64,000 nucleotides of DNA from Alphaproteobacteria bacterium (GCA_965261735.1 OZ253470.1:1856001-1920000); one strand, 5' to 3'. Counted from the first letter of the stretch, positions 32,780-52,200 are shown. The notes: generated from the sequence alone by a model not told the origin. Program-made: numbers and translations.

Positions 32780-33551
32780 CCACGCCATTCAGAGTTTGCA
32801 GAAACTAGGTGCTGCGGTGCAACGATTGGTAGAACCCCTTCAGCCCTTCATTCAATCAATGCAACGTGTCTCTCAGGCTATCGCGCCTGTCCTCGAAGGG
32901 ATAGCTCCGTACATCGAACACTTTGTGAAATATCACAAATTCATCGATTCAGTCCGTCCAACGGGCTGGCTACCTTATCATACTGTATCATTGGACTATG
33001 TTGAAGAATGTGGAGACGATGTTTCTCTGCTCGAAGCCCGTCTGGCAGAATTCTACGAGAACAATTGGCAAGACATCCGTCAAGATATCAAAACAAGAAT
33101 GGATCGCTATCACATATCAGGGGAAACCAAAGCGACATTTCTCGAAGCGCTTTCTGCACATGACGTGGGACACTATAGGTGTGTTTGTCGTGTGTTATTT
33201 CCGGAAATTGACAGAGAGTTTCGGATTCACTTTTTTGAAGACGCCGCTGGTTCAATTTCCTCGAAGAGAATGCTGGAGAGATTTGAGAATCGAACAACAC
33301 TAAGAGACGTCCTGCCAAGAGAGGCATATGGTTGGATACTATTTGATCGACTTGTTCATCACTTGTATGAACCAGTCCATGATAGTAATAGGGCTAAATA
33401 TGAGGAGGATTACGTTCCAAACCGTCATGCATCTACCCACGGACTTGTTCCATACTCTACGTTTAAACACAGCATGAACATGATTATTATGGCAGACTAT
33501 ATTTTTCAGATACTTACTTCGAGGGTTGAGCTGACATCGCCGAAGCAATAA
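32769..33551 (+). CDS. Hypothetical protein with a putative HEPN motif
   Basis: 260 aa, AT-richer, start overlaps the RM gene end; NRHASTHG (Rx4H) near the C-terminus. Confidence 0.65.
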   Translation: MTDNHAIQSLQKLGAAVQRLVEPLQPFIQSMQRVSQAIAPVLEGIAPYIEHFVKYHKFIDSVRPTGWLPYHTVSLDYVEECGDDVSLLEARLAEFYENNWQDIRQDIKTRMDRYHISGETKATFLEALSAHDVGHYRCVCRVLFPEIDREFRIHFFEDAAGSISSKRMLERFENRTTLRDVLPREAYGWILFDRLVHHLYEPVHDSNRAKYEEDYVPNRHASTHGLVPYSTFKHSMNMIIMADYIFQILTSRVELTSPKQ

Positions 33552-33829
33552 TGCTCCCGATCTGTTCGGTGGCCTCCACGAGATGGTTGTTGGCGAGATG
33601 CGCATAGCCCGCCGTGGTTCGGTGCCGTCGGCACCCGAGCAGGGAGAAGAACCCAGATTCGGATCGGGGCGAGTACAGGACTACGGGGCAGCGCCCGCCC
33701 GGAGGCTGGTTTGGTGAGTGGGGGCCTGAAGGGCTCGCAATGGAGCCGTTCGTGAGCGTCCCGCGTGACCGCCCTTCTGGCGGGTCAATGTGATGCCGCA
33801 GTTTTCTATGGTGACGATCCGGAGGTCGA

Positions 33830-34080
33830 TGGTGCCGGACCACCTGCCGCGCGAGGAGACGGTTCTCGCGCCGGGCGATCACTGCGCGGACTGCGGCGGC
33901 CGTCTCAAGCGTCTCGGCGAGGAGCTGGAGTACAGACCGGGACGCTTCGTGGTAAGGCGCATCGTGCGCCCGTGCCTGGTCTGTCGTAGGTGTGCGACGT
34001 TCCACCAGGCGCCCTTGCCGATGCGGCCGATCGAGCGCTGCCGTCCCGGCCCCGGCCTTCTGGCCCATGTGCTGGTTGTA
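33830..34080 (+). pseudogene. IS66-family transposase (TnpC) zinc-finger fragment
   Basis: PDHLPREE..CADCGG.L..LGE..LEYRP..F.V.R.VRP..C..C..QAP.P.RPI....PGPGLLAHVLV. Confidence 0.8.
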
Positions 34081-34616
34081 TGGACGCCTCCCGGAGCGCA
34101 AGTGCGATTTTCGTTTGGTGTAGACGTGCGATTTCAGGGCGACGGCGAAGGCCGACACCCCTGCCTGTGATGCCCTGCCCTCATTGGGGCACCTCGCTGG
34201 ATCGGCGCTCGCAAATCGATTCGTGGGGCCGGCATCGTTTGGCAGCACGTGCCACCGCCGGTCGCCGGTGCGCTGCGGGAAACCATGCCCAAGCGGCCGC
34301 ACCATCGGAGGAGAGAATATGACGGTTGTGGTACCCGGAAAGGAGCGGAATCGACACGTGGTTTCAATGCGATAGCGAAGGCCGGTGCCTTGCCTGAGAT
34401 GATCTACCGTCATCGAGGGTAAGCGTGACAAGGCTGCGCTTGTCGTTCCAACGGTGCTGACTTTCATGGCTCCAGGTTCTTCCCAACCTGGCAATGAGTG
34501 CCGAGGATACACGCGGGTTTGAGTCTTGTCGGAGACCCATACGGTGCCCCGACGGGCCGAGAAAGGCGGCGGCTCCAATGCCCCGCTCCCGATGCAGGAG
34601 GAGAACCGCTCTGGAG

Positions 34617-35000
34617 CTACCCGGCCTGCGGCGCATGCCGGTCGATCGCGCTGTCGCGCAGCGTCTGTTCGAGCAGGCGGAACGGCTCGAGGTCCTCGGC
34701 GGCGCGCCGGGTGACGAAGCCGGTGCGTCAGCGGCGCCGGCCGAAGGCGAGCGGCAGCGGCCTGAGCCGCGGCGCGGCCAGCCGGTCGAGGTAGTCGAGC
34801 GGCAGCCAGGCGAGCCAGGGCCCGGTCGACATCGGGAACAGGCCGGCGGCGCCGGCCCGGAGCACGGTCGCGGCGCGCCGGCCGGTGTCGCGGAACAGCC
34901 TCTCCAGCAGGCGGTCGAGGGCGGGCGGGTCGAAGTCGATCCACGGCCAGGCGGTGAGATCGCCGGGTGCGGGAGTGCCCTCCAGCAGCGGATGGCCCTC
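34617..35000 (-). pseudogene. LysR-type substrate-binding domain fragment with an internal stop
   Basis: HPLL....PGDLTAWPWI..., LAWLP..., LRPLP; TGA at 34728-34730; no HTH domain. Confidence 0.5.
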
Positions 35001-36062
35001 GAAGGAGGTCCCGCCGGACGACCTGACCCTGGAGCAGGCGCTCGCTCTGCTGGAGCCGCAGGAACGATGAAGCGCGGCAGCGGCATGCGGGAGGGTATCG
35101 TCTTTGGTGGTCGGTGCTTGCGCTCGCCGTTGTTGTTCCGGCCTTCTTCCTGCTCGGCGTATTGGTCGAGTTGCAGTTCGAGATTGTTCCCCGGCACGAT
35201 CCGAGCGGCGGCTGGAGCCGCCACATCTGGGACAACTATGGCCCTGCCATCGCCGAGTGCGCGATGGAAGCAAAGCGGGCGGACCGGGCGGTGAAGTGTT
35301 CGTTCGACGTTCGTAAACCATAATCGGCGCAGGCGCTGAACCGCCGCCGCCGAACTGTGTTTTCCATGCTGTCGATCACAGGAGGCATGTCAATCAGGCA
35401 ATTATCGAGATCAGCCACGTCGCTGGAACCTACTCCCCATCGGTCGGCTGCACGGAAATGCCGTCATCCACGGCAGTCATGTCTACTGCCACATACCGCA
35501 TAAACTCCAATCCGATCGTCGTTACCTGCCCCTACGCACGCCGGGAAGCTGCAGGGCCTCGGTGTTTCCGAACTGCTCAACATTGTGCTCAACTGTTGGG
35601 ACACAAAGAGATTTTCCGTATTGTGCCGCCTATGGGTAGCCCAGAGAACATTTGCCAGGATCGGTCTCCGTCGCCGTTTGTTAAGAGAATGCGAGCTAAC
35701 ACTTGCAAGTTCTAATGCGCAGGCGAAACTGACTGCATACCTGTTCATGATGCGGCTGGTCACGAGATGCCGACCAAACGAGAACCTGTTTATCCCTGAA
35801 AGTCATCCGGCAATGAGGAGGCGATAGGGCATGGGCGTGAGTGTCGCGGATAAGCAGGAACGAGAATGCTACTTGATTTTGGATCGAGACTTATGATTCG
35901 GTCTCAAAGACCGAGCTTCCCCGCATCCCATGTGCTCTCGATGCCTCCAGCCATCTCGCGTCAAACCAATTCTCTCCATCTGTGGCAACCAATAATTGGG
36001 TCTTGCTACGTTTCTAGAGTTATGCGCAATTTGTGACAAGCACCTAACGGAAGGCATTGGGT

Positions 36063-37070
36063 ATGATCGGAAGAAAGTCTTTAACCGTTCATTATCGTCG
36101 AATGGAGGATCCTGTGGGTGCCCTGAATGGCACGACACTTGAACTCGCCGTCCGCAAGGCAATGGATATGCCGATCAATGGCACAACCATTTCTGCAAAC
36201 TGGAATGAACGAGCGTGGCTTTTTCCTCCCGAAAATACCGACACTTACCTAATGAACATTTTCCATGATGACGGGATAAGTTTTTTCGGAGATCTTACTG
36301 TCTATACAAGTGGGTTTTTGCAAACACTCCTCAAAAATGAGCCAGACGTCCCTATGCTATCAGTCGAACAACACGCTCCGCCTAATAATCGTGAATATAT
36401 TCATTCTATGATGTATTGGCTAATTGTTGGGAACCACGTTCTCCTAATTCAAAGCCGATCGTTAACCTCCAAACACCTTGAACAATATCTGACTTGGCTT
36501 CTTAAAGACAAGACCCAGGAGATGGCAGGTAACGGCCACGTCATCCTAAATGCCAAGTTTGACGGTGATCAAGTGGGCGGTGACTTAGACGACGTTAAGG
36601 AAATCATTGTAGGCGGCACGGGAGTCCTCCAAGCTGCTATGCTCGACCGGCTCCCTCCACCTCCTGCCCAGGAACGTGATGTTGAACGCCATGTCGACAT
36701 CGATGAGCAAAGAGGGTGGGGAGAACGAGCCCTACGTGTCTTGACGGCTATCATGAGCAATGAAGCGGACGTTCAGCGGTTGCTGAATACCATCCCTCAA
36801 GATGCCGACCTCGATGTCTCAGTGCGCATAGGATACAAAACCTTACGTCGAACAGTGTCTCGCGCACCCATGCAACAAGCGCTTCGTAATTTACCTGATG
36901 GGGAAATTACGGCGATTGGAAAGTATGGTCGTGTAACAGGCGAGGACATTCGCCTTAGCTATCCAATTCGTGTTCAAACGAATGGTAGCCTTTTAGACCT
37001 CGAAGACGTACGTTCAAAACTCCGCTCGGCTTACAACCACTTTGTGGAAAATGGGAAGATCGACCCTTGA
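36063..37070 (+). CDS. Hypothetical soluble protein, possibly RexA/KwaB/RdgC-like
   Basis: Intact 335-aa lower-GC ORF; fold guess from the beta-rich pattern (VHYRR, FFGDL, YWLIVGNHVLL, LEQYLTWLL) and the membrane partner. Confidence 0.7.
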   Translation: MIGRKSLTVHYRRMEDPVGALNGTTLELAVRKAMDMPINGTTISANWNERAWLFPPENTDTYLMNIFHDDGISFFGDLTVYTSGFLQTLLKNEPDVPMLSVEQHAPPNNREYIHSMMYWLIVGNHVLLIQSRSLTSKHLEQYLTWLLKDKTQEMAGNGHVILNAKFDGDQVGGDLDDVKEIIVGGTGVLQAAMLDRLPPPPAQERDVERHVDIDEQRGWGERALRVLTAIMSNEADVQRLLNTIPQDADLDVSVRIGYKTLRRTVSRAPMQQALRNLPDGEITAIGKYGRVTGEDIRLSYPIRVQTNGSLLDLEDVRSKLRSAYNHFVENGKIDP

Positions 37071-37080
37071 CGGTAGCAGG

Positions 37081-37686
37081 ATGTCTGCGGTGCGATGGGT
37101 AAAGACTAGGTGGGACTTCGCCTCTGCGTTGATTCTAGCGCTGATAGGGGGGTTGGCGCTCACGCCAGATGCACCCAAGGCAGTAACTACAGAACTCATA
37201 TCGTTTTTCAGTATTCAGGCAGCGGTAATACTTCCAGCCATGATCTTTACTGCTGGCATAATGCGTTCCAACGGTTTAGAGCATTCGCAGGCTAAGCGAT
37301 ATCATGAGGCCCTCAAACAACAAATGACCTTTTGGTCGGTATTGCTGGCCCTCGACTTCTCGTCAGTTGTTCTGTTAATTATTGGAAAGGCTACATCATG
37401 GTCCTTGCCAGCTTTACTGATAGGTAATGACTATAGCGTGAACCTCGACGCATTATATATCGCTTGCCTTTCCTTTGTTGGCTCTCTCGCTCTCTTGCGA
37501 ACCATTCCTTTTATTCGCGGCGTATTTAGTCTACTTTCTTTGAATAGCGAAATGATTTTGGCGGAGATAAGACGTAGAAATCAACAGGAGGCCAAAGAGC
37601 GCAGAAGCCACACCGAACAGAACCCTATTAAGTTGCCGAAGGGATATGGAGCCATTGTCCCCAACGAAGAAAAAGACAATAGCTGA
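37081..37686 (+). CDS. Hypothetical membrane protein (about 4 TM helices, charged C-terminal tail)
   Basis: Four hydrophobic segments; 10 bp downstream of the preceding gene. Confidence 0.75.
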   Translation: MSAVRWVKTRWDFASALILALIGGLALTPDAPKAVTTELISFFSIQAAVILPAMIFTAGIMRSNGLEHSQAKRYHEALKQQMTFWSVLLALDFSSVVLLIIGKATSWSLPALLIGNDYSVNLDALYIACLSFVGSLALLRTIPFIRGVFSLLSLNSEMILAEIRRRNQQEAKERRSHTEQNPIKLPKGYGAIVPNEEKDNS

Positions 37687-37858: not shown

Positions 37859-39874
37859 TCACTGTGCATCGCACACATCGTGATTCATTGCCCTCCGGAA
37901 TGACGACACAAGTGCAGATGCGTGTGCGATGTTGATCTGGTCCCCGTCAGTCATCCTCAGATTTTTATCGGCAAGTGCTTTGGACCAGCGCTCTGCTTCA
38001 TGTCGCCCCGCGTTTTGATCTTCTGGATCGATTGATAGGGTTGGTAAGGGTTCGCCTAGCCGACATACCATCACGGCATCCCAAGAAATCGATCGCGCAC
38101 GCTTGTGTAGACTTGCACTGCTATCGCCATAAAGGGGAAACGTACAAATTGGCGTCAACCCCGCCTTGGCCATTGCAGAGGCGATGGCGTGCCAACCACG
38201 CCCGTCCAGATTTTGGTAGGTGAATACAACCCGGCCCTCAGGCTTGCAGACTCGGCGGATCTCTCGAAAGACGTTAGCCAGTTGTCGGGCGAAACGACGC
38301 TCTGACTTACTTGTTCGAGTCATCTGTGCGATTTGCCCCTTCGGAAAACCGCCCTTTCCACGTCTGCTTATTAATCGAAAACGACGAAACCATGGACTAA
38401 AGAAATGACCGAGTTCCGAATAGGAAATGTAATCGAAGTAAGGCGGGTCGGTGAGGACAAGATCGACTGTCTCCGATAGTATATGTTTCATTTTGCGGGC
38501 ATCACCGCAAATAACCTCCGTTGAACCACCGACTGAATCCCTGGTTCGCTTGAACAGTCCTCTCGGGCTTGGCTCTCGCGGATCCTTCAGTCCTTGCGAG
38601 GCCCGCGTTACGGCGCGTACTGAATTGGGGTAGGTCCCTCGCCCGTTATTTCGGAGCCATGGGTTGATCTCCACTGGTCGAGCTATATGGCGGTATGCGC
38701 GAATCGCGAACAGGGGAGCAAGCCGGCGCCACCCGCCAGCGTAGGTACACAACATGTTGGTCGTCGTTAGGTGGTCCGAGAAGGCAAACGCCAAACCGTC
38801 ACGTGCTGCACCTTTTACATCTTCAATTGCCGCTCCCAGTAACGCGAGATGAAGTTTCTGCCGTGCGTTGAACATCTCGAGGTAGTCTCGATAGCCGTAG
38901 TCGATCAGACGGTTGTCGGATCGACCCGTTCGCGGAATCGGACCTGCAGGCAAGGTATCCGGGTTCTCCAAAAGGAGTTGCTCAAGCCGACGTTCCGCCT
39001 TCCGGTAACAAATTCGATCGAATTCAGTAGCAGAGCGGATCGTTCGATCACGGATCTTTACCCTTCGGGCGTCGCCAACCGGTAGAGTCTCTACCGCAAA
39101 CATGCGGAACGTCGGGGGTACCCCTATCCGACGCGCATAGTCAATGAGCGCCTCCTGTTGACGACATCGGGGACAACTGGCCTTGCCATGTTCAACGCGG
39201 CCACCAGAGCACGGAGTTTCCGCTCCGCATGCACAAGTCACGCTTACAGCGTCCACATCCGCCTGAATGATGGAACTGCATGCGCCACAGGCAACCCACT
39301 GCCGGGATTCAACATCACTCCAAGCAAGGCGGAATTTCGGATGCGCATCGAACAAGAAACCGCACGTTTGACAATGAACCGTCTGAACCCAGAAGGCGTG
39401 CAGCAATGTTTCGGATCGGCCGTTAGCATCCTGTGCCTCATAGAATGGAGCTAGCTCGCATCCGACAGTTTCCACCAAGTGCTGCAAGGGCTCTTCTAAG
39501 TCGGGTAGATCGCGAAGCCTCGTCTGGAAGCGCGCGATCGCCGCAGCCACCGGCTCGATATCTACTCCCCGCGCGGACGCGCCAAGACGGGAAGCCTCAA
39601 GCAGCATGACACCACCGCCGACGAAGGGATCGAGTACGGTGTACCCCTTCATCACGTCGCCCTTGTAGAAGTTCCGCCAGAACGATTCCGAATGATCGCA
39701 CGCGGAACCGACTAGAAGGGCACGTGCAGTGACGGCAAGCCGCCGCGCGAACCATTTGTGTGCTTGGTAAACATCTCGAGGACGAACGCCCTCGCGCATT
39801 GCAATTCGAGCCAGTTCGGCAACAGGCAGGTCGCCCTTGTCCAATATAGATTCGGAGGGCAACGACCGAGTCAT
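37859..39874 (-). CDS. Zn-ribbon-containing amino-DNA methyltransferase (COG1743/DUF1156-like)
   Basis: HKWFARR, motif I VLDPFVGGG, several Cys pairs, motif IV LTDPPYFDYISYSEL, PEGRVVFTY. Confidence 0.85.
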   Translation of the reverse strand: MTRSLPSESILDKGDLPVAELARIAMREGVRPRDVYQAHKWFARRLAVTARALLVGSACDHSESFWRNFYKGDVMKGYTVLDPFVGGGVMLLEASRLGASARGVDIEPVAAAIARFQTRLRDLPDLEEPLQHLVETVGCELAPFYEAQDANGRSETLLHAFWVQTVHCQTCGFLFDAHPKFRLAWSDVESRQWVACGACSSIIQADVDAVSVTCACGAETPCSGGRVEHGKASCPRCRQQEALIDYARRIGVPPTFRMFAVETLPVGDARRVKIRDRTIRSATEFDRICYRKAERRLEQLLLENPDTLPAGPIPRTGRSDNRLIDYGYRDYLEMFNARQKLHLALLGAAIEDVKGAARDGLAFAFSDHLTTTNMLCTYAGGWRRLAPLFAIRAYRHIARPVEINPWLRNNGRGTYPNSVRAVTRASQGLKDPREPSPRGLFKRTRDSVGGSTEVICGDARKMKHILSETVDLVLTDPPYFDYISYSELGHFFSPWFRRFRLISRRGKGGFPKGQIAQMTRTSKSERRFARQLANVFREIRRVCKPEGRVVFTYQNLDGRGWHAIASAMAKAGLTPICTFPLYGDSSASLHKRARSISWDAVMVCRLGEPLPTLSIDPEDQNAGRHEAERWSKALADKNLRMTDGDQINIAHASALVSSFRRAMNHDVCDAQ

Positions 39875-42800
39875 CGAAATTTCAATTCACATGTCCCGAA
39901 CACCGGTAAGCTAATCTGTTCCGAGCGAGTGAGAAAACCGTCAACGAAATGTTTAAGCAAACGCGACTCTTCCAACGTGCGCCGGTCACGCGGGAGATAG
40001 TCGACAAGCGATCGACTGATAAGAGCAATGAATTTTGCTTGCGCCCGCGAGGCCGTGACATTGAAACGGTTGAGAGAATACATAAACGTCTCTTCAGCGG
40101 CGATCTGATCCGCATCCCCTAGTCCGAAACTCGCGAGCATCACTGCCTTTTCCTGACCTTGGAAGCGTTCGACAGTATCGATACTGTCGAATACGGCATT
40201 ACGATCGACCTGATCCGGGAGTACCGCAGCCAAACGATCAAATACAGCCGCCTGCTGTGCTCGATGTGGCGTGACGACGCCGACACCTCTCCGGAAAAAG
40301 TCTTCCGCTGAGTAGGGTTGTCCCTCTTCAGCTTCTAAGTCACAGAGACCGGCCCGGAACAAAGCGAGGATCAGCCCCGCGGCAAGATCCGCCTCACCGT
40401 CATTGCGCTGGCTGCTGAAGCGATCACTGTGAACGACAGCAACGAGCGGGTACTCCGGAGCGGTGATACGGGCTAAATGCGGAGAAAATGGTAATTGCTC
40501 AGGCCAGTCAATCGGCTGGATCGTTTCGATCTCCCGAACAGTGTCGATTCTTAGGTCAGCATTCCCTTCGGCAGCTTCCAAGTCTTCGCCGTATCCGGCC
40601 TCGCGCACGAACTCAACAATCTCACAATTGGAGCGGAAGCTGCGGTTTAGCATCACCGGTTCAATCTCGAACTGCGGTCCTTCATGCTTACGGTAGTGGC
40701 GGAAAAAGTCGTAGATCGACCCCACCAGGTGCTCCAAGCCGTCAGGCGCCTCAAGCGGGTGAATGGGCGCCATCTGCTTGTCATCGCCTACTACGACTAC
40801 GCGGGCACCTTCAGCGAGCTTACTAAACGCTACGACAGCGTGCGCCACGTCCAGTTGGGATGCCTCGTCGATCAATATGATGTCAAATAGTGATACGCAC
40901 TGGGCTGGTGCGCCCAGCTTGTACAATTGATCCACTGTGCTTGCGACGATCGTTACACCGTCCTCTTCGCTCAATCTTCGCTCCAGTTCCACCCGCCTGG
41001 GATTGGCGTCGTCCATGGGGACCACGAAGTCGGCCAACTGAGGATCCACGCCCCTCGTCGTCGCCCTGGAATTCAGCCGGCTCAGGCGGACATCCTCCGC
41101 GACAGCAGCGTTCACAAGAAGCTCCGGCAGACGACGAGCGACGTTGTCTATCGCCACCCATGTAAATCCGGAAATAGCGATGCGGAGCGGACGCCCCTCC
41201 CTAACGGCCTCAACGGCAATTGCGGTGAGATACGCTTGCGCTGTACGGCTCTTTCCCGTGCCAGGAGGGCCCCACCAGAGGGCGAGGCGGCGTGTAACGG
41301 CTCGAGTAATAGCTGCACTTTGACGCTCCGTTAGATCAGGCATCGACCGTTGCGCAATAGCAAGTACCGGACCTGGTGCCGCCGCTGATTCTGTTCTAGC
41401 CAACTGGTCGGCATTCCAGATGAACTCAGCGGCGGTACTGTCCGCGTCCCCGACACGCGGCCGACCTCCCCGCACCCGAGCTACATGTTGAGTCGGAAAC
41501 AATGGACGCTGCTGCGCGAGCGGAGGATTGCGGATTCCAGATCGATCCTCCAGGGTTCTGCGAAGCTTTTGGGTAAATACATCCATGGCCACGAGGTCCA
41601 GGATTCCGAAGCGACCTCTTGGGCCATCAAGGTTCATCTGCAGGAGGCCGAGCCGCAGAGTCTCGGCAAGCAGTTCACTAACTTCCACTGCTAGCAACTG
41701 ATTCCTACGATCAACTCTGAGGATATTGACCTTCAAGTCCTCACGGAGTTTTGTCCGCCACTCCCAGGGATTAATGGGTAAGGCATCCTGGATGGCCGGG
41801 TTCGTGGTTTTGAACTGCGCCACAGTAAGATCCTGGAGTTCCGGCAGATCCGCCTCGGGCAAAAACGACCAAGTGAACTCGCCTTCTTTTAAGCGCGCTT
41901 CCCTGGATCGCGCGGAAAGACGAAACAAATAAACAGTATCGTCCGCCGCCCGACCAGCAAGGCCAACTGCTTGAAGACCATCCCTACGCTCAGCCCCCAC
42001 CAATACGGCCTCGACTCGTGCCGAGTGATAGCGTGCCTCACGCTCGTGAGGAGGCATCGCCATCAAGAGGTCGACTTGTAGCCGTTGAGCAGCGGCCATG
42101 AGGCGTGTGTGCTGGTAAAGTATCTGTCCGTCGTCCCCCACTCCCGTAACCCTACCGGCTGGCTGGAAAACATCGCCGACCCGAGGTGCTTGGGATCTGA
42201 GGTCGTCTTGTAGAAACCCGATCAGCTTTTCCGCCACATAAGTGATGGCATGCAACTTTCGCCGGACTACCTTTCGCATCTCCTCCTGGTGCCACTGGAA
42301 GTCCTGATTCAAGAACGGCGAGGTTCGATTCCAGATTTCATGGCCACGCTCGGAAGGTACTTGGTCAGACAAAGGATCCCGGTAAAACTTGTTAACGTGG
42401 AACCACCATCGCTCACCGTTAGGAAGGTTTCGGCTCTCTGGCTCCAGTTCATTTGCCAAATCGATCAGGCCGTAGTGGTGCGGAATAGGCACTGCCATGA
42501 GGCTATTCACGGCGTCGGAGACAATTGTAATCGGAGAAGAGCGACTGACGAAATCGGGCTCCTCAAGCAAGCTATCTGCCGGAAACACCCAAGCTATCGG
42601 GTTGAGATCTGCTTGCCCTACCAATACTGGATCCTGCACGATATCCAAGTGACGTCCGAAAATGCGGCATAAATGATGGTACGTAAGCTGGTCCCACAAG
42701 AAGAACTGTACTGTGACGTCAGCCTTATCCGCATCACCCTGGTTGTGGTAGCCTTCCAGAATATCTGTCCGAACCCGGTGGATATCCTCGACTAGGTGTC

Positions 42801-44292
42801 GAAGCCACAACCGCAAGGTTGCGCCTTCGTCTCGTAAGGTTCGTTCCAGAACCAAAATTGGTCGTTCTATAGTAGCAAAGGCGCGCCCATACTGGGGACC
42901 GTCCATTCCATGTGGCCGTACCTGGTTAGGAACCCCGTAGTTGATTCGGTAGCCAAGAGCGAAGGTCAGACCGCTGCCAACATCAAAATCGGCGGATACA
43001 CATACCCGGATATCTGCGAACCTTGGCAAGACCGCGGATGTGCCCGCCCGATCCGGGATGTTCGCCTCCATTTGGTCGTGCAAAGTGGCTGCGCGGGCAC
43101 TGAGAACTGTCCGTTTGGCCCGAAGCATCTGGTGGATTTCAAAGGCAGGACTGCCCGCCGGCAGCGCTGCAACCGCCGCGATATCAAGAACACGTGCTTC
43201 CCGAAGCTTGCCGCATGCACCCTCTGTTAGCCCAGCCACTCGACTGAGGTGTTGAGTTTGCTCTGCCATCGGCCAGCAGTACCGCTCGTCAGGACGACGG
43301 TCATCATCAGGACGGCCCTCGGCACCTTCGTCGTCGTGACGAGACCAGCGATATCCAAGGTAGTCGCAGCCAGCACACCGATTGTCTATGTGCCAATCAA
43401 GTTCACGCCAATTCGGTTCGGCCAAGACCTCACGGAGATCGACTCGCAGGAAGCGCTGGATTCGACCGAGTACTACTTCGGGAGGCATGGCTTCAAGATC
43501 CGCCTCAAGGCCCTCTCGATACCGTTCAGGGTCGAGAACCGGGACGCCAGCGGCACGATCGTCCAGGAGAAGCCGACGGATAGTAGAGCCCTCGTGTGCA
43601 CCAGGCCATATTGCCGCTTCAGCAAGCACAACGAAACGATCGCTCCGTCCGGTATCCCCAAGCCATCCAGCTAAAGCCATACCGTAATACGCCAGCTCCG
43701 AAAAATGCGAAGGGGATGGTTCTCCCGCAATCTTGATGTCGATGATGCGAAGACCCAACCGTTCATCCTGAGGATCGATACGGATCAAGGAGCCAGACTG
43801 ACTAATGATCCGACGCCCCTCCCGTAGCACGGGAGGCTGCACCTGGAGAATGTCTGGACGGAGTGCCCCGAACCCTAGAGGCTCGCCCCCCGCCACTGCT
43901 GTTCCGTCCGCAAGATCCGCCAAACCGTGGGCAGCACGGAAGCTATCGGTCGTCTCGAACTGTGCCTCAAGTGCGAGTTGGTGCGGCTCCAAGCCATCAA
44001 TTATCGAATTAAGTTCGATGATCTCAAAAGCACGATCCTCTTCGGCCTCATATGCCCGAAGCGCACCACGAACCACCAAGCCCCCAAATACATCTTCCAG
44101 CTCGCGGAACTTCGTTCGTTCGTACTCCTTGCCCTGCTGTGTCAATAGGGCAAGTCCGGGTCGGCCAGCATCCTTTTCGGGAACACCAGCCAATCGTCGC
44201 TCCTGGACACCACTGTAGAGATCTAGCCGCAGTCGGCGACGGCAACCCGTACGAATGTACTGCGAAATGAGGCTCTTACCCAAGCGATACAA
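39871..44292 (-). CDS. Dna2-like protein: Cas4/RecB-type Fe-S nuclease + SF1B (UPF1/DNA2) helicase
   Basis: TTG start with AAGGAGG SD; C17..RPD..IDIK..ELAYY..CAGC..C; WGPPGTGKS, IDEASQ, GDDKQMAP, VTPHRAQ, TVERFQGQE, NRFNVTASRA. Confidence 0.87.
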   Translation of the reverse strand: MYRLGKSLISQYIRTGCRRRLRLDLYSGVQERRLAGVPEKDAGRPGLALLTQQGKEYERTKFRELEDVFGGLVVRGALRAYEAEEDRAFEIIELNSIIDGLEPHQLALEAQFETTDSFRAAHGLADLADGTAVAGGEPLGFGALRPDILQVQPPVLREGRRIISQSGSLIRIDPQDERLGLRIIDIKIAGEPSPSHFSELAYYGMALAGWLGDTGRSDRFVVLAEAAIWPGAHEGSTIRRLLLDDRAAGVPVLDPERYREGLEADLEAMPPEVVLGRIQRFLRVDLREVLAEPNWRELDWHIDNRCAGCDYLGYRWSRHDDEGAEGRPDDDRRPDERYCWPMAEQTQHLSRVAGLTEGACGKLREARVLDIAAVAALPAGSPAFEIHQMLRAKRTVLSARAATLHDQMEANIPDRAGTSAVLPRFADIRVCVSADFDVGSGLTFALGYRINYGVPNQVRPHGMDGPQYGRAFATIERPILVLERTLRDEGATLRLWLRHLVEDIHRVRTDILEGYHNQGDADKADVTVQFFLWDQLTYHHLCRIFGRHLDIVQDPVLVGQADLNPIAWVFPADSLLEEPDFVSRSSPITIVSDAVNSLMAVPIPHHYGLIDLANELEPESRNLPNGERWWFHVNKFYRDPLSDQVPSERGHEIWNRTSPFLNQDFQWHQEEMRKVVRRKLHAITYVAEKLIGFLQDDLRSQAPRVGDVFQPAGRVTGVGDDGQILYQHTRLMAAAQRLQVDLLMAMPPHEREARYHSARVEAVLVGAERRDGLQAVGLAGRAADDTVYLFRLSARSREARLKEGEFTWSFLPEADLPELQDLTVAQFKTTNPAIQDALPINPWEWRTKLREDLKVNILRVDRRNQLLAVEVSELLAETLRLGLLQMNLDGPRGRFGILDLVAMDVFTQKLRRTLEDRSGIRNPPLAQQRPLFPTQHVARVRGGRPRVGDADSTAAEFIWNADQLARTESAAAPGPVLAIAQRSMPDLTERQSAAITRAVTRRLALWWGPPGTGKSRTAQAYLTAIAVEAVREGRPLRIAISGFTWVAIDNVARRLPELLVNAAVAEDVRLSRLNSRATTRGVDPQLADFVVPMDDANPRRVELERRLSEEDGVTIVASTVDQLYKLGAPAQCVSLFDIILIDEASQLDVAHAVVAFSKLAEGARVVVVGDDKQMAPIHPLEAPDGLEHLVGSIYDFFRHYRKHEGPQFEIEPVMLNRSFRSNCEIVEFVREAGYGEDLEAAEGNADLRIDTVREIETIQPIDWPEQLPFSPHLARITAPEYPLVAVVHSDRFSSQRNDGEADLAAGLILALFRAGLCDLEAEEGQPYSAEDFFRRGVGVVTPHRAQQAAVFDRLAAVLPDQVDRNAVFDSIDTVERFQGQEKAVMLASFGLGDADQIAAEETFMYSLNRFNVTASRAQAKFIALISRSLVDYLPRDRRTLEESRLLKHFVDGFLTRSEQISLPVFGTCELKFR

Positions 44293-44852
44293 CCGAAACC
44301 TCCTTAGTTTGCACCCGCGTCCATTGAGGTACAGCGCAACGATGGCCGCGCATCATTTTTGGGGCACGGATGCCCGCGCCGCTAGCACCAACACGGCCGA
44401 AAAGCGACTGGTTGGCAACCGCTGAGAATCAAGCGCAGCCGCGAAGGGCTTTTCATTTCGGTGCAAATGACATTAGCTTCGAAACATATACGACCGCACT
44501 TGATGGGAAGGATTCCGCAACTCGGCAAATATCGTATTCTCTCCCAACACTTAGCTAAGTCCGAAATGCCTCGCCTTTATGTGCTCTACTAATCGAAATT
44601 TCAATCATCCTGTCGATCACACTGTCAATCGGCTCGGAGTTTTCCATTTCATTACCAACCTCTCCTGGTCCATCCCATAATCTGCGACGATGTACTTGAG
44701 CTGATCTAGCCTCAACGGCGCCGGTTGGCCGCGAAGGGCCTCCTCCCCCCGTTGGGCAACAGCGAGGGGATCTAAGACCGTCGGAGGTAGACGGTTAGCC
44801 GGTCCGCGGACGCCGCTACCATTTTTCCCTTACGTGATGTCGCCTTAGCTTA

Positions 44853-45821
44853 GAGTCCGTCCGGGGACTTTATGTAGGATTACAGAGTTTTCGGAGCATG
44901 AGTCGAATGGACGCGAGCTTGATGAAGGCGAGCGCGTTGCGGTTGAGGTTCTCCCAGTCCTTGGCCAGTCGGCGGCAGCGGTTGAGCCAGGCGATGGTGC
45001 GTTCGACCACCCAACGCCTGGGCTGGACGACGAAGCCCTTCACCCGATCGGATCGCTTGACGATCTCGGTCTCGAGATCGGGCAGGATGCCGGCCAGGGC
45101 GCGGTGAAAGACCGGGCCCTGATAGGCGCTGTCGGCGAACAATTTCCCGAGAAAGGGAAACAGACCGAACAAGGTCGCCAGCAGCGCGAGACCGCCGTCG
45201 CGATCCTGAACGTCGGCGGCGGTGACGATGCCGTGCAGCAGCAAGCCTTGCGTATCGACCAGAACATGCCGCTTCTTGCCCTTGATCAGCTTGCCGGCAT
45301 CGAAGCCGTGGCTGTCGATGCGAGCCCCCCTTTTTCAGCGCATTTCACACTCTGACTGTCGATGATGCAGGCCGTGGGGCTGGCTTCGCGCGCGGCTTTC
45401 TCGCGGCACTTGAGGTAGAGCGCATGATGGATGCGATCCAGCGTGCCGTCCCAGTTCCACAGGCCGAGGTAATCATGCACGGTGCTTCTGGGCGGCAAAT
45501 CCTTGGGCAGCGCGCGCCACTGGCAGCCGGTGCTCAGAATGTACATCACGCCGTTGATCACCTCGCGGATAGCGACGCGCCGTTTGCCGTCGCCGGGCTT
45601 GCCCGGCGGGATCAGCGGCTCGATATGCGCCCATTCCGCATCGGTCAGGTCGCTCGGATAACGCAGTTTGTCGCGGTTGTAGCGCGGGCGGTTGTCGGCA
45701 GTCCACATGGGGCACCTCAAGAGCAAATTCACCACCCCAGAGAATCACAGCTGATTCAGCTCTTCAAGAGGGGCCGCCGGATAACCGATTCATCCGACTC
45801 ATAAAGTCCCCGGACGGACAC
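44853..45821 (-). mobile_element. IS5-family (IS1031-like) element, 969 bp
   Basis: IR G(A/T)GTCCGTCCGGGGACTTTAT; 3-bp TSD TTA at 44850-44852 and 45822-45824. Confidence 0.92.
44870..45708 (-). CDS. IS5-family transposase in two frames (probable programmed frameshift)
   Basis: ORF1 YPSDLTDAEW..TGCQWRALP..IIDSQSVK; ORF2 ADSAY..RWVVERTIAWL..RRL.KD; slippery AAAAAGGGGGG at 45335-45325. Confidence 0.88.
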
Positions 45822-46187
45822 TTAGCAGGACGTTTCTTCGCCTCTAGATCCAAGGCGCTCCGCAGTTCTCATTGAATTGAGGGTTTCGATCAGCTTCGTC
45901 ACTTATTGCTTCTTGTGTGAGCTCTTCCAATTTCTCTGCCAAATGTTGATACCCCCATTTCTGTTTTTGAACTGAGCCGCGTTCCGCGGCGGGGTGTCTT
46001 GCCCGCCGGGTGTTCGCAGTGATCTCCCTACACCAAGCTAGTTGAAGCGGACCTTGCGGCTCGGCTTGCCGGGGCAAGTCCTGATCCGCGTTTCTCCCTC
46101 ATTGATAAATGGTCGTCGACTGCCTCACCGGCGAGCGAGAGCATAGGCGTGTTTTCGTGACCGCTCAGACCCAGAGGGAGAAGACCC

Positions 46188-47045
46188 ATGACACAGCTGC
46201 GCCAACGCATGACCGACGACATGACCGTTCGCGGACTCGCCGAGAACACCAAGAAGTCGTACCTCAACTCGGTTGCCGGGCTCGCACGTCACTATCGTCG
46301 CAGACCCGACCGGATCTCCGCTCCGGAAGTCCAGGACTACCTCCTCCATTTGCACGAACAGAAGGGGTTGACCTGGCAGAGCTGCAACTGCGTTCGCCAC
46401 GGCGTCCGCTTCCTGTACCGCATCACGCTCGGTTTGCCCGACCCGCACTTCTATCTGCCGGGTGCCAAGACGCCGTCCACCCTGCCCCGGATCCTCAACC
46501 GCGACGAGCTCGTGCGGCTGTTTACCGTGACCACCAACCGCAAGCATCGCGCCTTGCTGATGACGGCCTACGCCGCAGGGCTTCGGGCGAGCGAGCTGGG
46601 GCGGCTACAGCTCAGCGATATCGACTCCGAACGCATGTGTCTGCGCGTCGATCAAGGCAAGGGCAATAAGGACCGCTACGTCCCCCTCTCGCCCCGGCTG
46701 CTCGATGAACTTCGCGCGTACTGGCGCCGGCATCGTCCCCGGCACTGGTTGTTCCCCAGTGATCTCCGCAGCCGGCCGATGATGACGCGCGCGGGACCTG
46801 CGCACATTTACAAGGCAGCCAAGGACAAGGCCAGGATCGACAAGCCCGGCGGGATCCACACGCTGCGGCATTGCTACGCCACCGGGCTCCTCGAGGCCGG
46901 GGTCGAGCTACACGTCATTCAGCGCCGGCTCGGGCACAGCTCCATCCGCTCGACCATGCGCTATCTGCATTTGGCCCACGACAAGACTTCCGCCACCCCG
47001 TCTCCCCTGGACCTCTTAGAGTTCCCGCGGTCCGGCCAGTCCTGA
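46188..47045 (+). CDS. Tyrosine recombinase/integrase (SAM-like N-terminal domain)
   Basis: YAAGLRASE, GKGNKDRYV, HTLRHCYAT, LGHSSIRSTMRY. Confidence 0.93.
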   Translation: MTQLRQRMTDDMTVRGLAENTKKSYLNSVAGLARHYRRRPDRISAPEVQDYLLHLHEQKGLTWQSCNCVRHGVRFLYRITLGLPDPHFYLPGAKTPSTLPRILNRDELVRLFTVTTNRKHRALLMTAYAAGLRASELGRLQLSDIDSERMCLRVDQGKGNKDRYVPLSPRLLDELRAYWRRHRPRHWLFPSDLRSRPMMTRAGPAHIYKAAKDKARIDKPGGIHTLRHCYATGLLEAGVELHVIQRRLGHSSIRSTMRYLHLAHDKTSATPSPLDLLEFPRSGQS

Positions 47046-47048
47046 CCG

Positions 47049-48206
47049 GTGGCTCATGTCAGTCACGCAGCGCCGGCCACCCGGCCGGCGCTGGAGGTCG
47101 CGGACATCCTGCGCGAGCGTGGCGATGCTTATCGTGAGACGCATCGGCTCTCGGCCCAGCAACACAAGGTCGTGGACGCGCTGGTGAACTGTCGCACCGC
47201 CGCGCTCGGCGGGTTCAAGGCGCATTGCGACCAATGCGGGGCGGTGACGATCCAATACGCGTCGTGCAGGAACCGTCACTGCCCCAAGTGTCAGACCCTC
47301 TCGCAAACCCGATGGGTCGAGCGTCAGTGCGCCGATCTGTTCGACATCGACTACTGGCATGTGGTCTTCACCTTGCCCCACGACCTCAACCCCGTGGCTC
47401 AGGGCAATCCCGCGCTCATCTACAAGCTGCTCTTCAAGGCCGCATCCCAGACCCTGCTAGAGTTCGGCCGCAATCCCCGCTGGCTCGGCGGCGAGCTCGG
47501 CATCACCATGGTGCTGCACACCTGGGGCCAGAATCTGGGACAGCACATCCACGTCCACTGCATCGTCACCGGCGGAGCCTTGAGCCCGGACCAGCAAAGC
47601 TGGATCGCCCCCGCGCGCAAGGGATTCCTGTTCCCAACGGCCGCTCTCTCCAAGGTCTTCCGCGGGAAGTATCTCGACTTCCTCACCGACGCCCATCGCA
47701 AGGGCGAGCTGCGCATGCCCGGCCGCGATGGTCTCGACGGCAGCCGCGCCTTCGAATGTTTGAAGACCTCGCTTCGATCGAACAACTGGGTGGTCTATAC
47801 CAAGGCCCCGTTCGCCGGCGCCGGCCAGGTGCTGGCCTATCTCGGGCGCTACACCCACAAGACCGCCATCGGCAACCACCGTCTCGTCGAGTTCGACGGG
47901 GAGCACGTCCGCTTCCGGTGGCGCGACTACGCCGACGGCAACAAGGCCAAGGTGATGCGTCTCGACGCCGACGAGTTCATCCGCCGCTTCCTCCTGCATG
48001 TGCTGCCGCGCGGCTTCACCCGGCTGCGCCACTACGGATTGCTCGCCAATCGTTCCAGAACCGGCAAGCTCGCCCTGTGCCGAGCCATGCTTGGTCAGCC
48101 AGACCCGGAACCGCTCGAGCCGGAGACGACGCAGGAGATGATGCTGCGTCTGACGGGAATCGACATCACCGTGTGCCGGCAGTGCAGGAAGGGAACGCTG
48201 CGGTAG
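47049..48206 (+). CDS. IS91-family (Y2) transposase with Zn-binding N-terminus
   Basis: CRTAALGG, SCRNRHCPKCQ, HVVFTLP, HTWG..HIHVH (HUH), YLGRY, RHYGLLAN. Confidence 0.93.
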   Translation: MAHVSHAAPATRPALEVADILRERGDAYRETHRLSAQQHKVVDALVNCRTAALGGFKAHCDQCGAVTIQYASCRNRHCPKCQTLSQTRWVERQCADLFDIDYWHVVFTLPHDLNPVAQGNPALIYKLLFKAASQTLLEFGRNPRWLGGELGITMVLHTWGQNLGQHIHVHCIVTGGALSPDQQSWIAPARKGFLFPTAALSKVFRGKYLDFLTDAHRKGELRMPGRDGLDGSRAFECLKTSLRSNNWVVYTKAPFAGAGQVLAYLGRYTHKTAIGNHRLVEFDGEHVRFRWRDYADGNKAKVMRLDADEFIRRFLLHVLPRGFTRLRHYGLLANRSRTGKLALCRAMLGQPDPEPLEPETTQEMMLRLTGIDITVCRQCRKGTLR

Positions 48207-49237: not shown

Positions 49238-52200
49238 CTATATGCCCATGCTTCGTCCCCGGGATCTTTTGTAGGTCTGGCGTTCTTCTTCCTCGACCGT
49301 TTCGCGCTTTTGAGAGTGGCGCTCAACATAGTCGTCGAATTCCTTTTGCGCCGCCTTGCGTTCTGCCCCCGTCGCGTTGTACGCGGCTGATTGAAGCCGG
49401 CTGAACTCGCGGGCCTCCCTTTGCGCCCGGTGCTGGCGTTCCTCGTGCGTCTCCTGAGGTGCGGATTGTTCGCTTTGGCGCTCCCGTTCAGCGGCCTGCG
49501 ATATCTGCTTGTCGTCCCTGCCGATCAGCCTGCCGATATCGGTGAGCGCCCAGCGCACGTGCTCCAGGCCGAGCGAGATGCCGTTGAGGTGGGGGGCATA
49601 GGTATCTTGGTCGTCTATGATACGCCGACCGGTCTCGGCCAGCCTGTCGATGTCCGCCCGCCACCTGTCATAGCCAGTGAGACCGGTAACCGGTTTGTTT
49701 AAATCGATCGCGACGGTTTCCAGCACCTCGCTGCGATATTCCAGCCGGTCCTTGACTGCAGCGAGATAATCCTCGATTTCACGGCGGGTTTCGGTCCCTT
49801 CGTCGAGGTGGGCGAGCACGTTCCCGAGCGACCGGCGTGGGCGGTCTTCAAGGGCCGGGTTTTCGGCCAACGCTTCCATGCGGGCGCGGAACTGCTTGTA
49901 GCCGTCCACATATATGGCATGGACACCGGCCCGTTCCGCGGCCGCGAGGTGACGACTCCAGTCCTTTCTCAAGGCCGAATAGGTGTCCCAGGCGACCTGT
50001 TTTTCCGTTGGTACGGTCGGTTTATCCACTGGCGGCGCCGGCGCCACTGCTGGAGGACCTCCGGCCAAGTCCCGTTCGGTTGGCATGGCAACCGTTTCAA
50101 TCGGGGGTGTGGCCTGCGCCGGGGTATGCGGTCTGCCATCGCCCGGCCTAGCCGGTCGACTGCGCCCGGGGGGCACGCCACCCGCTGTCTCGGCGGCTCC
50201 GCCCCCGAGCGGCTGCACGCCCTGGCGCATCTCCGGCTCGAGCCCCTGTTGATCCGCCTCCCGCTTGATCCGATGCACGTAGCGCATCGTGGCCGCGCGC
50301 CGGTGACGCCGCGCCCGTGTATGGAGATCCTCGAAGGCGTCAAGATCCTTGCGCCCGATACCGCAGCGCTCTGCCAGCAGGGAGGCGAAGTCGTCCGGCC
50401 GGGCGCGGAAGGCCGCGGCCTGTTTAAGCAGTGCCGAGTGACGGGTGAGCGTCTCCTGGTAAGCGGGCCCAAGCGCCACGGTATCGCCTTGCGTGCGGGT
50501 GCGCTCGCGCAGATCGTCGTATGCCGCCAGAATTTCCTCGCGGCCAGCGGCGAAGGTGGAGACTGCCTGGGCATGGCGCCAACCGAAGGCGGTGCGCCGG
50601 ATATCCCGCGCGATGCGGGACAGCGCGTTGTCGTTGGCTGCCGGACGAGCTTCCAGCGGCTCTTCCCGGGTTTCTCGGGTTTCTCGGATTGACCGGGAAT
50701 TGTCCTCCCGAACATGCTCCCGTCGGTCTTCCCATACGCCATCGGCCATGTAATCGAGCGCCGCTTCTTTGGGCTGCGACCGTGACCAGCGTTCGGCGAG
50801 ATACGACCGGATCTCGGTGTCCGTCACCACCGCTTTCCGGTCGTTGTCGGCCCTTCTATCGGCAATATCGAGAACGAGCGGCGCCCGGTTAACGTAAATG
50901 TCGAGCCCTTCGCGATGGCGTGTCGCCGCGGGATAGATGGTTTCACGCGCCGGCCGTGCATCGGCCAGCAGGAACGTCCGGTCCACGGTCAACCCCTGGG
51001 CCGATGTGATCGTGAGCGCATAGCCGTGATCGAGGCGGATATTGCCGTACCAGTCGCGGATTTCGTCGTGATGGAACGATACGGCTCGTCCGTCCTCGGT
51101 GCGCGCCGATATCAGGACACTTGGCTCCGTACCGGCCTCGCCTCTTTGAACCTTGAAGTCGTCGACCGTGACCACGGTGCCGTTGAACAGCTGCTTCTCC
51201 CAGTGGGTGGCGCCAATGCGCAGCCGGTCGCCGCGCACGATCTCCAGTGGCGAGGCTGTTCTCTCGTCTTCCGTGCCCCTGCTTACAATAATCGTCACTC
51301 GGTCCGCATGGACCCGATCCGGATCGGGCCGTTCCCCATTCGGCAGGGCGGTAAAACGACGTTCCCGCATCAGATGAGACAGTGCCCGCACTTCGGCCCG
51401 CGTGCGCGCCAGAACCACGCTGGATTTGTCGGGATGTTCGCGCTGGTAGCGATCCCAGTCATCGATCAGACCGGTCAACGTCTTTTCTTCATCGTACCCG
51501 ATATGGAACCGGCCCCTTGCGCGGTGGGCCGCTATGGCCGATGCCGCGTCGCCATCGCGAAGCGCTTCCGATGCCGCTACCTGCCACGGTGTGAATGCAG
51601 GCTTATCCTCCATCGCCTCGTATTCAGCAACAATTCGGGTGCGTTCCTGCTCCCCCATCATCCCCGTGCGGAACCGCGCAGCCTCCGGTGCCTCGCCATG
51701 GACATGAACCAGGATGTCTTCCAGGTCGGCCTTCTGGCGGCGGATTCGGTCAACCCGCACGCTGCCAACGGCGTCGCGCACCAACCTCAACCCCGGACCT
51801 GCTTCTACCGGCTGTTGCTGCTGCGTGTCGCCCGCGAATACGATCTTCGCTCCATGACGTTCTGAGAGTTGGAGAATATGATGCGCCTGGCGGGTCGACA
51901 GCATCCCCGCCTCGTCGACGATGATGGTGGTGTTTCCATCGATCTCGATCCCGCCCCGCGCGGCAAGGCGCAGCAGCTTGTCGACGCAGAACGGCCGCGC
52001 ATCGACATCGTTACCCAGCGCCACGGCGGTGCGCCAAGCCACAGCCGTGGCGATGATGTTCTTCCCGTGTTCACGGTAGAGATCGGCGATTGGCCGGAGC
52101 GTCGTGGTCTTGCCTGAGCCCGCCGCCCCTTCGATGATGGCTACACGTCCGCTCGAAGACGTTACGGCCCGAATCGCCTTGATCTGTTCTTGGCTCAACG

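Follow-up and report, generated by a model that had tools for sequence, protein, structure and literature searches.

In a 64,000-nucleotide stretch of DNA from an Alphaproteobacteria bacterium (GCA_965261735.1 OZ253470.1:1856001-1920000; the window), we analyzed two overlapping genes at positions 37,859 to 44,292, which probably constitute a two-gene restriction-modification-like defence module. Gene 1 encodes a large nuclease-helicase related to the bacterial DNA2-like enzyme Bad, and gene 2 encodes a methyltransferase different from the one that accompanies Bad. In the proposed mechanism, the gene 2 product would mark host DNA at a single recognition motif, most likely by forming N6-methyladenine, and the gene 1 product would unwind and cut DNA without this mark. 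The arrangement has a precedent, as it is a variant of the pairing of Bad with a methylase, for which a novel type of restriction enzyme was proposed. What is added here are the zinc-ribbon DPPY methylase as partner, the translational coupling of the two genes, the breadth of the family, the exchange of methylases between its clades, and the fold of the central domain.

Both genes are intact and located on the minus strand. Gene 1 (39871..44292) starts with TTG and encodes 1473 amino acids, gene 2 (37859..39874) starts with ATG and encodes 671 amino acids. They are coupled by the sequence ATGA at 39871-39874, in which the stop codon of gene 1 overlaps the start codon of gene 2, and a strong Shine-Dalgarno sequence (AAGGAGG, 44299..44305, minus strand) lies 6 nucleotides ahead of the TTG codon of gene 1. 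The guanine-plus-cytosine (GC) content is 0.557-0.571 over 38-44 kb compared to 0.65-0.70 at the two ends of the window. An earlier interpretation of this DNA (the sequence-only reading) had claimed two intact minus-strand genes with this overlap, a strong Shine-Dalgarno sequence, a GC content below that of the host, and a location within an island. Our reading of the open reading frames (ORFs), their translations and the base composition agreed with these claims, and the island was recognized by a tRNA-Ser gene, a serine recombinase, an integrase, insertion sequences (IS) and a relaxase. The pair is carried by an integrative mobile island beside tRNA-Ser.

The N-terminal part of the gene 1 protein (residues 1-400; 43093..44292, minus strand as for all domains described below) is a Cas4-like nuclease of the PD-(D/E)xK type, with the iron-staple cysteines C17, C306, C309 and C339 and the residues D147, D185, K187 and Y203. 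In a broad alignment of 23 sequences with identities down to 23%, all of these residues, including the D185-x-K187 motif, were invariant, as were D437, W654 and the helicase motifs. An AlphaFold2 model of residues 1-960, based on 25 sequences, had a mean predicted local distance difference test score (pLDDT) of 85.4 and a predicted template modelling score (pTM) of 0.84. A Foldseek comparison of this model with the PDB gave no match at an E-value ≤ 0.001, the top one being Dna2 with 0.13. In a VIA-align structure search of 48,161 chains, residues 1-351 matched Cas4 (7mi4_A, Z 10.7, root-mean-square deviation (rmsd) 3.2, 195 residues aligned; 8d3l_I, Z 9.9), followed by weaker matches to MGME1 (Z 8.4) and Dna2 (5ean_A, Z 8.3). 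The arrangement of one plus three cysteines around a PD..DIK nuclease, noticed in the sequence-only reading, was thus corroborated by conservation in 23 of 23 sequences and by the Cas4 fold. The helix-hairpin-helix-like segment at residues 339-365 (HLSRVAGLTEGACGKL; 43198..43278), a motif recognized by eye, is plausible; the model has helices at 339-346 and 357-365.

The C-terminal part (residues 964-1452; 39937..41403) is a superfamily 1B (SF1B) helicase of the DNA2/Upf1 type with the Walker A sequence GPPGTGKS, whose lysine K1014 was invariant in the 23 sequences. The helicase assignment of the earlier reading held, as the Pfam models AAA_11 and AAA_12 exceeded their thresholds. Scans of gene 1 with the Pfam, PADLOC and NCBIfam libraries detected this helicase only: the best PADLOC match, DpdJ (1e-40), was confined to the helicase portion, and the NCBIfam matches PLuB_AAA, ProA and Hhe were far under their cut-offs. 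Likewise, the top PDB matches to a profile of 21 homologues were mouse and human DNA2 (E-value 1e-23, 5eax_A), again within the helicase only. Residues 748-960 (41413..42051), located ahead of the helicase, form a beta-rich region and linker according to the secondary structure of the model; a segment-wise analysis of conservation showed this part to be conserved inside the clade and diverged between clades.

What the sequence-only reading had called a long middle region does exist, but it is not featureless, since a recognizable exonuclease-like fold was predicted for it. Residues 424-747 (42052..43023) of the model adopt a fold like that of the 3'-5' exonuclease of family-B DNA polymerases (DEDD, RNase H-like). 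The best VIA match was 5mdn_B (Z 12.2, rmsd 2.9, 170 residues aligned), with DNA polymerases epsilon and alpha at a Z of about 11.8 and 3'hExo, RNase T, TREX1 and the epsilon exonuclease at Z 9-10. The nearest clusters in the ESM Atlas combine PDDEXK_1 with RNase_H_2, some of them also with AAA_11, which agrees with this assignment at the level of a lead. In RecB-like nucleases of the TM0106 type, a Cas4-like nuclease is followed by RNase_H_2; in gene 1, the Pfam model RNase_H_2 (PF13482) gave no match at an E-value ≤ 0.1, whereas the fold of the model is RNase H-like. Among the acidic residues of the domain, D437 was invariant and E489 was present in at least 90% of the sequences; D435, D534 and D721 were kept in the close clade only.

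Bad of Geobacillus stearothermophilus was described by Wilkinson et al. (PMC7430649, NAR 2020). It comprises 1245 amino acids. An iron-staple nuclease of the RecB type (motif III D150) is followed by a conserved domain in the centre, which is absent from eukaryotic DNA2 and whose structure and function were called 'completely unknown', and by an SF1B helicase at the C-terminus (Walker A K815) (PMC7430649). Bad contains an iron-sulfur (Fe-S) cluster and acts as a single-stranded DNA (ssDNA) endonuclease and as a processive 5'-3' motor (PMC7430649). Its homologues were reported to be scattered over Firmicutes, some Proteobacteria and Euryarchaea, and in Geobacilli the bad gene always adjoins a Type III Mod-like methylase; the authors proposed a new class of restriction enzyme in 2020 (PMC7430649). 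Gene 1 resembles Bad in having an N-terminal iron-staple nuclease of the RecB/Cas4 type, a domain in the central position that eukaryotic DNA2 lacks, and a C-terminal SF1B helicase, and both are sporadic and adjoin a DNA methylase. Gene 1 differs in being about 200 amino acids longer (1473 versus 1245), and the methylase beside it is of the zinc-ribbon DPPY type, with its core split, rather than Type III Mod-like, and is joined to it by the ATGA overlap.

A link between the two enzymes is provided by P0388, a Bad-sized protein of 1274 amino acids from genome G600. In P0388, the motif III aspartate (IDVK) is at position 150 and the Walker A lysine at position 819, compared to D150 and K815 in Bad. 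Its cysteines follow the canonical pattern CxxCx5C, aligned with C306, C309 and C339 of gene 1. P0388 aligns with residues 1-656 of gene 1 (E-value 4e-12) and with the helicase (5e-40), and it matches the profile of the gene 1 family from end to end. Gene 1 itself carries the marks of the Bad family, i.e., the four-cysteine iron staple, the motif III aspartate, the Walker A lysine and a conserved central domain. Gene 1 is therefore most probably a longer relative that belongs to the Bad family or stands close to it, the link running through P0388 and not through a direct alignment with Bad. The pair is not covered by any antiphage model of PADLOC v2 or NCBIfam r20, and for gene 1 the matches are limited to the helicase core. 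In the literature searched, which included few subscription papers, we found neither a named or tested system of such composition nor any later work on restriction by Bad. The sequence-only reading did not recognize the pairing as a named system, which agrees with the model libraries, but the idea of restriction by such an enzyme had already been printed in 2020 for Bad (PMC7430649).

Gene 2 encodes an exocyclic-amino methyltransferase, as judged from sequence and model. It passed the threshold of the Pfam model N6_N4_Mtase (PF01555) with 32 bits versus a cut-off of 26.7. Motif I comes first, followed by the insert and then by motif IV, so that the order is permuted compared to that of the Pfam model. 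The S-adenosylmethionine-binding motif I (VLDPFVGGG, residues 80-88; 39611..39637, minus strand, like the other coordinates of gene 2) and the catalytic motif IV (DPPY, residues 476-479; 38438..38449) were analyzed in a set of 24 homologues with 51-79% identity, in which D82, P83, F84, G86, G87 and G88 as well as DPPY were invariant. Catalytic residues are intact in both proteins of the pair according to the alignments. In the gene 2 model (pLDDT 85.5, pTM 0.86), the Rossmann core is formed by residues ~18-120 and 450-610 and is split by an insert of ~330 amino acids. Within this insert, residues 168-237 (39164..39373) form two four-cysteine zinc ribbons (C168/C171/C196/C199 and C214/C216/C234/C237). 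In the model, this part is rich in beta structure, and since all eight cysteines were invariant in the 24 sequences, the claim of a Zn-ribbon methyltransferase was substantiated. For a homologue with 52% identity, the source gives the name 'Adenine-specific DNA methylase containing a Zn-ribbon'.

The sequence-only reading had placed gene 2 with the COG1743/DUF1156-like DPPY methyltransferases. The DPPY motif is present, but the scores for DUF1156 were below the cut-offs (Pfam PF06634, 15.7 bits versus 24; NCBIfam NF042963, DUF1156_antiphage, 52.7 versus 1000), and gene 2 is, by its sequence, not a DUF1156 equivalog. The PADLOC matches, which were to HmaB, Type II methylases and DUF1156_MTase, were all partial. 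Gene 2 resembles the DUF1156 (COG1743) methylases of RL/BREX-related systems in its DPPY motif, its N-terminal helical segment and the large insert after the second core strand, in addition to the weak model matches, all of which are below curated thresholds. These methylases belong to systems with other partners (PMC12839542). A Pfam scan of the 20 neighbouring ORFs detected neither a DUF499 ATPase nor an SNF2 helicase.

The structural neighbours of gene 2 raise the alternative that it methylates RNA, in the manner of Trm11/Trm14-like enzymes forming N2-methylguanosine (m2G), with RNA or RNA-DNA hybrids as the targets of the system. Foldseek gave no PDB match at an E-value ≤ 0.001, and DNA methylases appeared only in its weak list (TTHA0409 of Thermus, 2zie_A, 2.5e-3; CcrM lower). 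The best VIA matches were Trm11 (6zxv_A, Z 16.1), Trm14 (3tlj_A, Z 16.1) and TrmN (3tma_A, Z 15.9); overall, the best structures of these three types had Z 15.6-16.1 and 21-22% identity. In addition, the Pfam model UPF0020 reached 23.4 bits with a cut-off of 22.3, and Upf1-type SF1B helicases often act on RNA. Nevertheless, action on RNA appears extremely improbable: gene 2 passed the N6_N4_Mtase threshold, the partners in other clades (see below) are typical DNA methylases (D12, SPPY N6_N4), the nuclease of gene 1 is of the Cas4/DNA2 DNA-nuclease type, and Bad is dependent on ssDNA (PMC7430649). DNA is presumed to be the substrate of gene 2 because of its Pfam family and the methylase partners in other clades.

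To determine whether the two genes occur together in other organisms, we compared the best 120 of 216 gene 1 homologues with the best 120 of 868 gene 2 homologues obtained by a word-indexed search. Two homologues were taken to be on the same contig if the size of the longest contig was identical for both, and P0033 (the cluster of the window's own fragment), P0083 (without contig value) and P0002 were removed ahead of the count. At least 41 of the 118 gene 1 homologues listed shared a contig with one of the 119 gene 2 homologues listed, and with contigs of ≥ 8 kb only it was at least 39 of 100. According to source names, the shared contigs include records of Pseudomonas aeruginosa, Bradyrhizobium iriomotense, Kaustia mangrovi, Methylobacterium platani, Methylobacterium sp. 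and Mesorhizobium prunaredense. The identities to the two proteins of the window correlated over the 41 pairs with a Spearman coefficient of 0.92, which describes co-inheritance and is not a test, because the pairs are mutually related.

A metagenome scan with the N-terminal part of gene 1 yielded seven loci, five of which were usable close relatives. In all three with downstream DNA (L049, L050 and L052), the same methylase gene directly follows the gene 1 homologue, and in 3/3 its ATG overlaps the nuclease-helicase stop codon as ATGA, as seen from the ORF coordinates; L049 and L050 had identical scores and are possibly one sequence entered twice. In the other two, L048 and L051, the sequence stops short of the methylase position. 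Nothing outside the pair was conserved between the window and these close metagenome loci, except for an integrase and IS91 pair in L048. Since the flanks are not conserved among relatives, the unit comprises two genes, and sequence comparison indicates a conserved two-gene module. For the same reason, a larger system including the Type IIG enzyme and the ORFs at 32745-37686 (see below) was rejected. Fused forms of the methylase longer than 1175 amino acids were not found, which is weak evidence. Methylase and nuclease are encoded and inherited together, as expected of a restriction-modification system, in view of the operon, the shared contigs and the co-divergence.

Downstream of the pair in L050 (6699-11308), there is a gene for an M78 (IrrE-like) peptidase followed by one for a paralogue of 1183 amino acids, in which Pfam recognized RNase_H_2 (6.3e-16) and an AAA_11/AAA_12 helicase; it represents a second, shorter family of related architecture.

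The family defined by the N-terminal 960 residues of gene 1 comprised 452 clusters (50% identity, E-value ≤ 0.001), 199 of them at an E-value ≤ 1e-30, and nearly all complete members have 1400-1500 amino acids. A scan of genome contigs settled on generic helicase motifs and yielded full-length relatives at 5 of 46 loci. The wider-family set consisted of nine other full-length loci, of which four have an adjacent methylase, three lack one and two are undecided. In a clade of about 28-30% identity, formed by a gammaproteobacterial metagenome-assembled genome (L001), a Bradyrhizobium plasmid (L056) and a Rhizobium plasmid (L057), a convergent gene for a methylase of 370-383 amino acids with motif I and SPPY overlaps the nuclease-helicase gene at its 3' end in 3/3. 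In Fibrella aquatilis (L009), the partner is a co-directional Dam-like D12 methylase with DPPF, which matched PD-Lambda-5_B with 5e-71. Assignment to PD-Lambda-5 was rejected, as PD-Lambda-5_A was unmatched by all six nuclease-helicases scanned. The nuclease-helicase and methylase genes of L009 (7490-20265) are found among genes for a Pycsar-type TIR effector, a patatin phospholipase and a TIR-LRR-Roc protein. In the two Methanoculleus loci (L011, L012), the sequence ends just past the gene, so that a partner is not seen either way.

That unrelated methylases were recruited repeatedly to the same nuclease-helicase speaks most strongly for restriction-modification. This argument has to be set against the alternative that the two genes are co-selected cargo acting without methylation sensing, with gene 1 being a stand-alone defence of the Nhi/Hna type directed at replication or entry intermediates and gene 2 an orphan, anti-restriction or regulatory methylase. 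Relatives without any methylase exist, no variable region resembling a specificity determinant was found in either protein, and Bad alone is an active nuclease and motor in vitro (PMC7430649), all of which would fit this explanation. The pair is also located on an island of conjugative type; orphan methylases are common on such islands. Loose cargo would, however, not be expected to show a 4-bp translational overlap, at least 41 shared contigs and co-divergence, nor would three or four unrelated methylase families be expected at the same position through recruitment by independent clades. We consider the cargo explanation unlikely.

Within the restriction-modification reading, the Cas4-like Fe-S endonuclease would precede a 5'-to-3' SF1B motor, with the polymerase-exonuclease-like domain as an addition; the Fe-S cluster, the ssDNA endonuclease and the 5'-3' polarity are carried over by analogy from Bad. 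The mark might be sensed as in Type III systems, with the methylase bound at unmodified sites, or directly by the motor. Because no variable specificity region is present, specificity may be clade-fixed and may reside in the conserved insert of the methylase. A more daring version assumes that the DNA2-like SF1B motor, with its leading Fe-S endonuclease and the polymerase-exonuclease-like domain, unwinds and shreds foreign DNA and reads the methyl mark on the threading single strand as a stop or 'self' signal, comparable to Chi in the case of RecBCD. Any DNA methylase could then be swapped in, be it the zinc-ribbon DPPY, the SPPY, the Dam-like or the Type III Mod-like one, and such enzymes would by this analogy form a distinct class of restriction enzyme. 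This version is distinctly unlikely.

Several observations weigh against a restriction-modification module. The three methylase-less loci suggest that the nuclease-helicase may not need a methylase: no amino-methylase was detected on the 12.5-kb contig of L004, near the gene in L061 (genome G600), or within 8 kb in L055 on the Methylorubrum extorquens AM1 megaplasmid. In L061 (1886-7798), the gene next to that of the Bad-sized relative of 1274 amino acids encodes an HSDR_N_2 protein, and genes for an SF2 helicase and a SIR2-like protein come after it, in place of the methylase, so an alternative partner set exists in the family. In L055 (8001-12333), the homologue with 44% identity is distributed over two reading frames, with the break near residues 293-295, and may represent a decayed orphan or a sequencing error; the frameshift in this methylase-less locus points to possible decay, as expected of an unguarded nuclease, and in this respect the locus counts in favour of the module. 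Furthermore, Bad prefers ssDNA and 5'-overhang junctions and acts poorly on full duplex (PMC7430649), which makes a start on double-stranded phage DNA hard to account for. The exchange D150A abolished the observed nuclease activity of Bad, with none residual (PMC7430649). In the exonuclease-like central domain, no fully conserved DEDD set is present across the family, and P0388 has glutamine at the first acidic position. In the homologue alignments of gene 1 and gene 2, no hypervariable stretch resembling a specificity domain was found, and the solved structures nearest to the gene 2 core in the VIA search are tRNA m2G methyltransferases.

The neighbours of the wider family comprise genes for TerB with an AAA ATPase, an anti-phage dGTPase, DUF262 and HEPN proteins, the Pycsar-type TIR, patatin and TIR-LRR-Roc proteins, and an AAA_13 ATPase, which by sequence are typical of defence islands. 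The family is sporadic, which, like its defence or mobile neighbours, counts in favour of a defence module. Of 401 genomes of the class to which the window belongs, only its own genome gave a full-length match to gene 1, and the same single match was found in a sample of 401 genomes of the phylum, in which four further genomes matched in the helicase part only. In the phylum of genome G405, 2 of 401 genomes matched, one with a full-length protein (G600) and one with a fragment at a contig end. We found no relative in IMG/VR and none in the phage collection beyond one helicase-only match.

This distribution also bears on a possible role of the pair as an accessory of the island in repair, recombination or replication, with DNA2-like processing of 5' flaps or ends during transfer or integration and methylation as a mark of timing or strand. 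Such a role would be in accordance with a helicase nearest to eukaryotic DNA2, with the relaxase and recombinases in the same island, and with the preference of Bad for 5'-overhang junctions (PMC7430649). We regard it as very unlikely, as the family was found in only one genome each of the class and phylum samples, the pair elsewhere adjoins differing mobile or defence genes and no conserved transfer genes, and the authors of the Bad study argue that Bad is not an orthologue of DNA2 in role (PMC7430649). Eukaryotic DNA2 shares with gene 1 an Fe-S PD-(D/E)xK nuclease ahead of an SF1B motor, and among the PDB sequences it matches the helicase best, besides being a weak match to the model (see above). 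It differs from gene 1, which has the polymerase-exonuclease-like domain at residues 424-747 and is mobile, sporadic and linked to a methylase, whereas DNA2 is a housekeeping replication factor.

Type III restriction-modification systems (Mod and Res) likewise combine a methylase with one large ATP-dependent protein of a helicase family containing a PD-(D/E)xK nuclease, and in neither case does the nuclease subunit have an obvious specificity domain of its own. In Res, however, the helicase belongs to superfamily 2 and the nuclease is C-terminal, whereas gene 1 has an SF1B helicase and an N-terminal nuclease. Moreover, the nuclease gene comes first in the pair, and, judging from Bad, its motor should truly unwind DNA. 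Membership in Type III was rejected on account of the SF1B helicase (AAA_11/AAA_12, DNA2/Upf1 matches) and the N-terminal position of the nuclease. Fusions of UvrD and Cas4 were found beside Type III systems or Dcm/Vsr, with a proposed defence role ancillary to complete restriction-modification systems (PMC5704561, accessible part). They resemble gene 1 in having a Cas4-like nuclease fused to a superfamily 1 helicase beside methylases, but the helicase is of the SF1A UvrD type, and domain order and family are different. Nhi is, like gene 1, a single large protein with a nuclease and an SF1B-like helicase and is active against phages; in contrast to the pair, it is not known to have a dedicated methylase, and its helicase is of the DUF2075 type, overlapping this family (bioRxiv 10.1101/776245). 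Membership in Nhi was rejected, as no Nhi model was among the 13 PADLOC families that matched gene 1 at an E-value ≤ 0.1.

With these results, the 2020 proposal of a restriction coupled to unwinding, with the nuclease arm supplied by bacterial DNA2-like enzymes, gains a comparative-genomic footing, consisting of at least 452 sequence clusters, repeated tight linkage to several unrelated methylase families, and location in mobile or defence islands. The locus described here is a compact, translationally coupled two-gene version that can easily be cloned, and the central domain, unknown in the Bad paper, has now been given a predicted fold of the family-B polymerase 3'-5' exonuclease type. If the pair does restrict DNA, this would add a new type of motor (SF1B, 5'-3', unwinding) to restriction-modification and would explain the sporadic DNA2-like enzymes of bacteria and archaea.

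The left edge of the island is likely formed by an integration module (23927-26611), in which a tRNA-Ser (CGA) gene (23927-24015) is followed by a gene for a large serine recombinase (24316-26061), accompanied by one for a DUF2924 protein. An attachment (att) repeat was not found with an exact-match seed of 14 bases. A gene on the plus strand (29387-32779) encodes a Type IIG restriction enzyme-methyltransferase of 1130 amino acids (PADLOC 1.7e-79; Pfam Type_ISP_C, N6_Mtase and Eco57I), which is a second restriction-type system of the same island. Between this gene and the pair, at 32745-37686, there are four ORFs of 268, 573, 337 and 214 amino acids, for which no Pfam or PADLOC match was obtained and which are not kept beside the pair in relatives. 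The GC content falls to 0.478 at 36-38 kb.

Just upstream of the operon, within 44870-48206, an IS5-type transposase is encoded by two ORFs (DUF4096, DDE_Tnp_1), and a tyrosine integrase and IS91 (Y2_Tnp) are located at 46188-48206. In the metagenome locus L048 (3863-7247), the integrase and IS91 pair is likewise found upstream of the gene 1 homologue. The island further contains IS fragments, a TrwC relaxase gene (49238-53530) and, together with it, a gene for a Toprim/DUF7146 protein. A scan for promoters and terminators gave no excess over shuffled controls. A 23-nucleotide stretch at the junction of gene 1 and gene 2 (39873-39895) recurs at 44592-44614, about 300 nucleotides upstream of gene 1, with 83% identity and 14 nucleotides exact, possibly by chance. 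Furthermore, a perfect direct repeat of 67 nucleotides is present at 55008-55074 and 55083-55149, with a spacing of 75 nucleotides.

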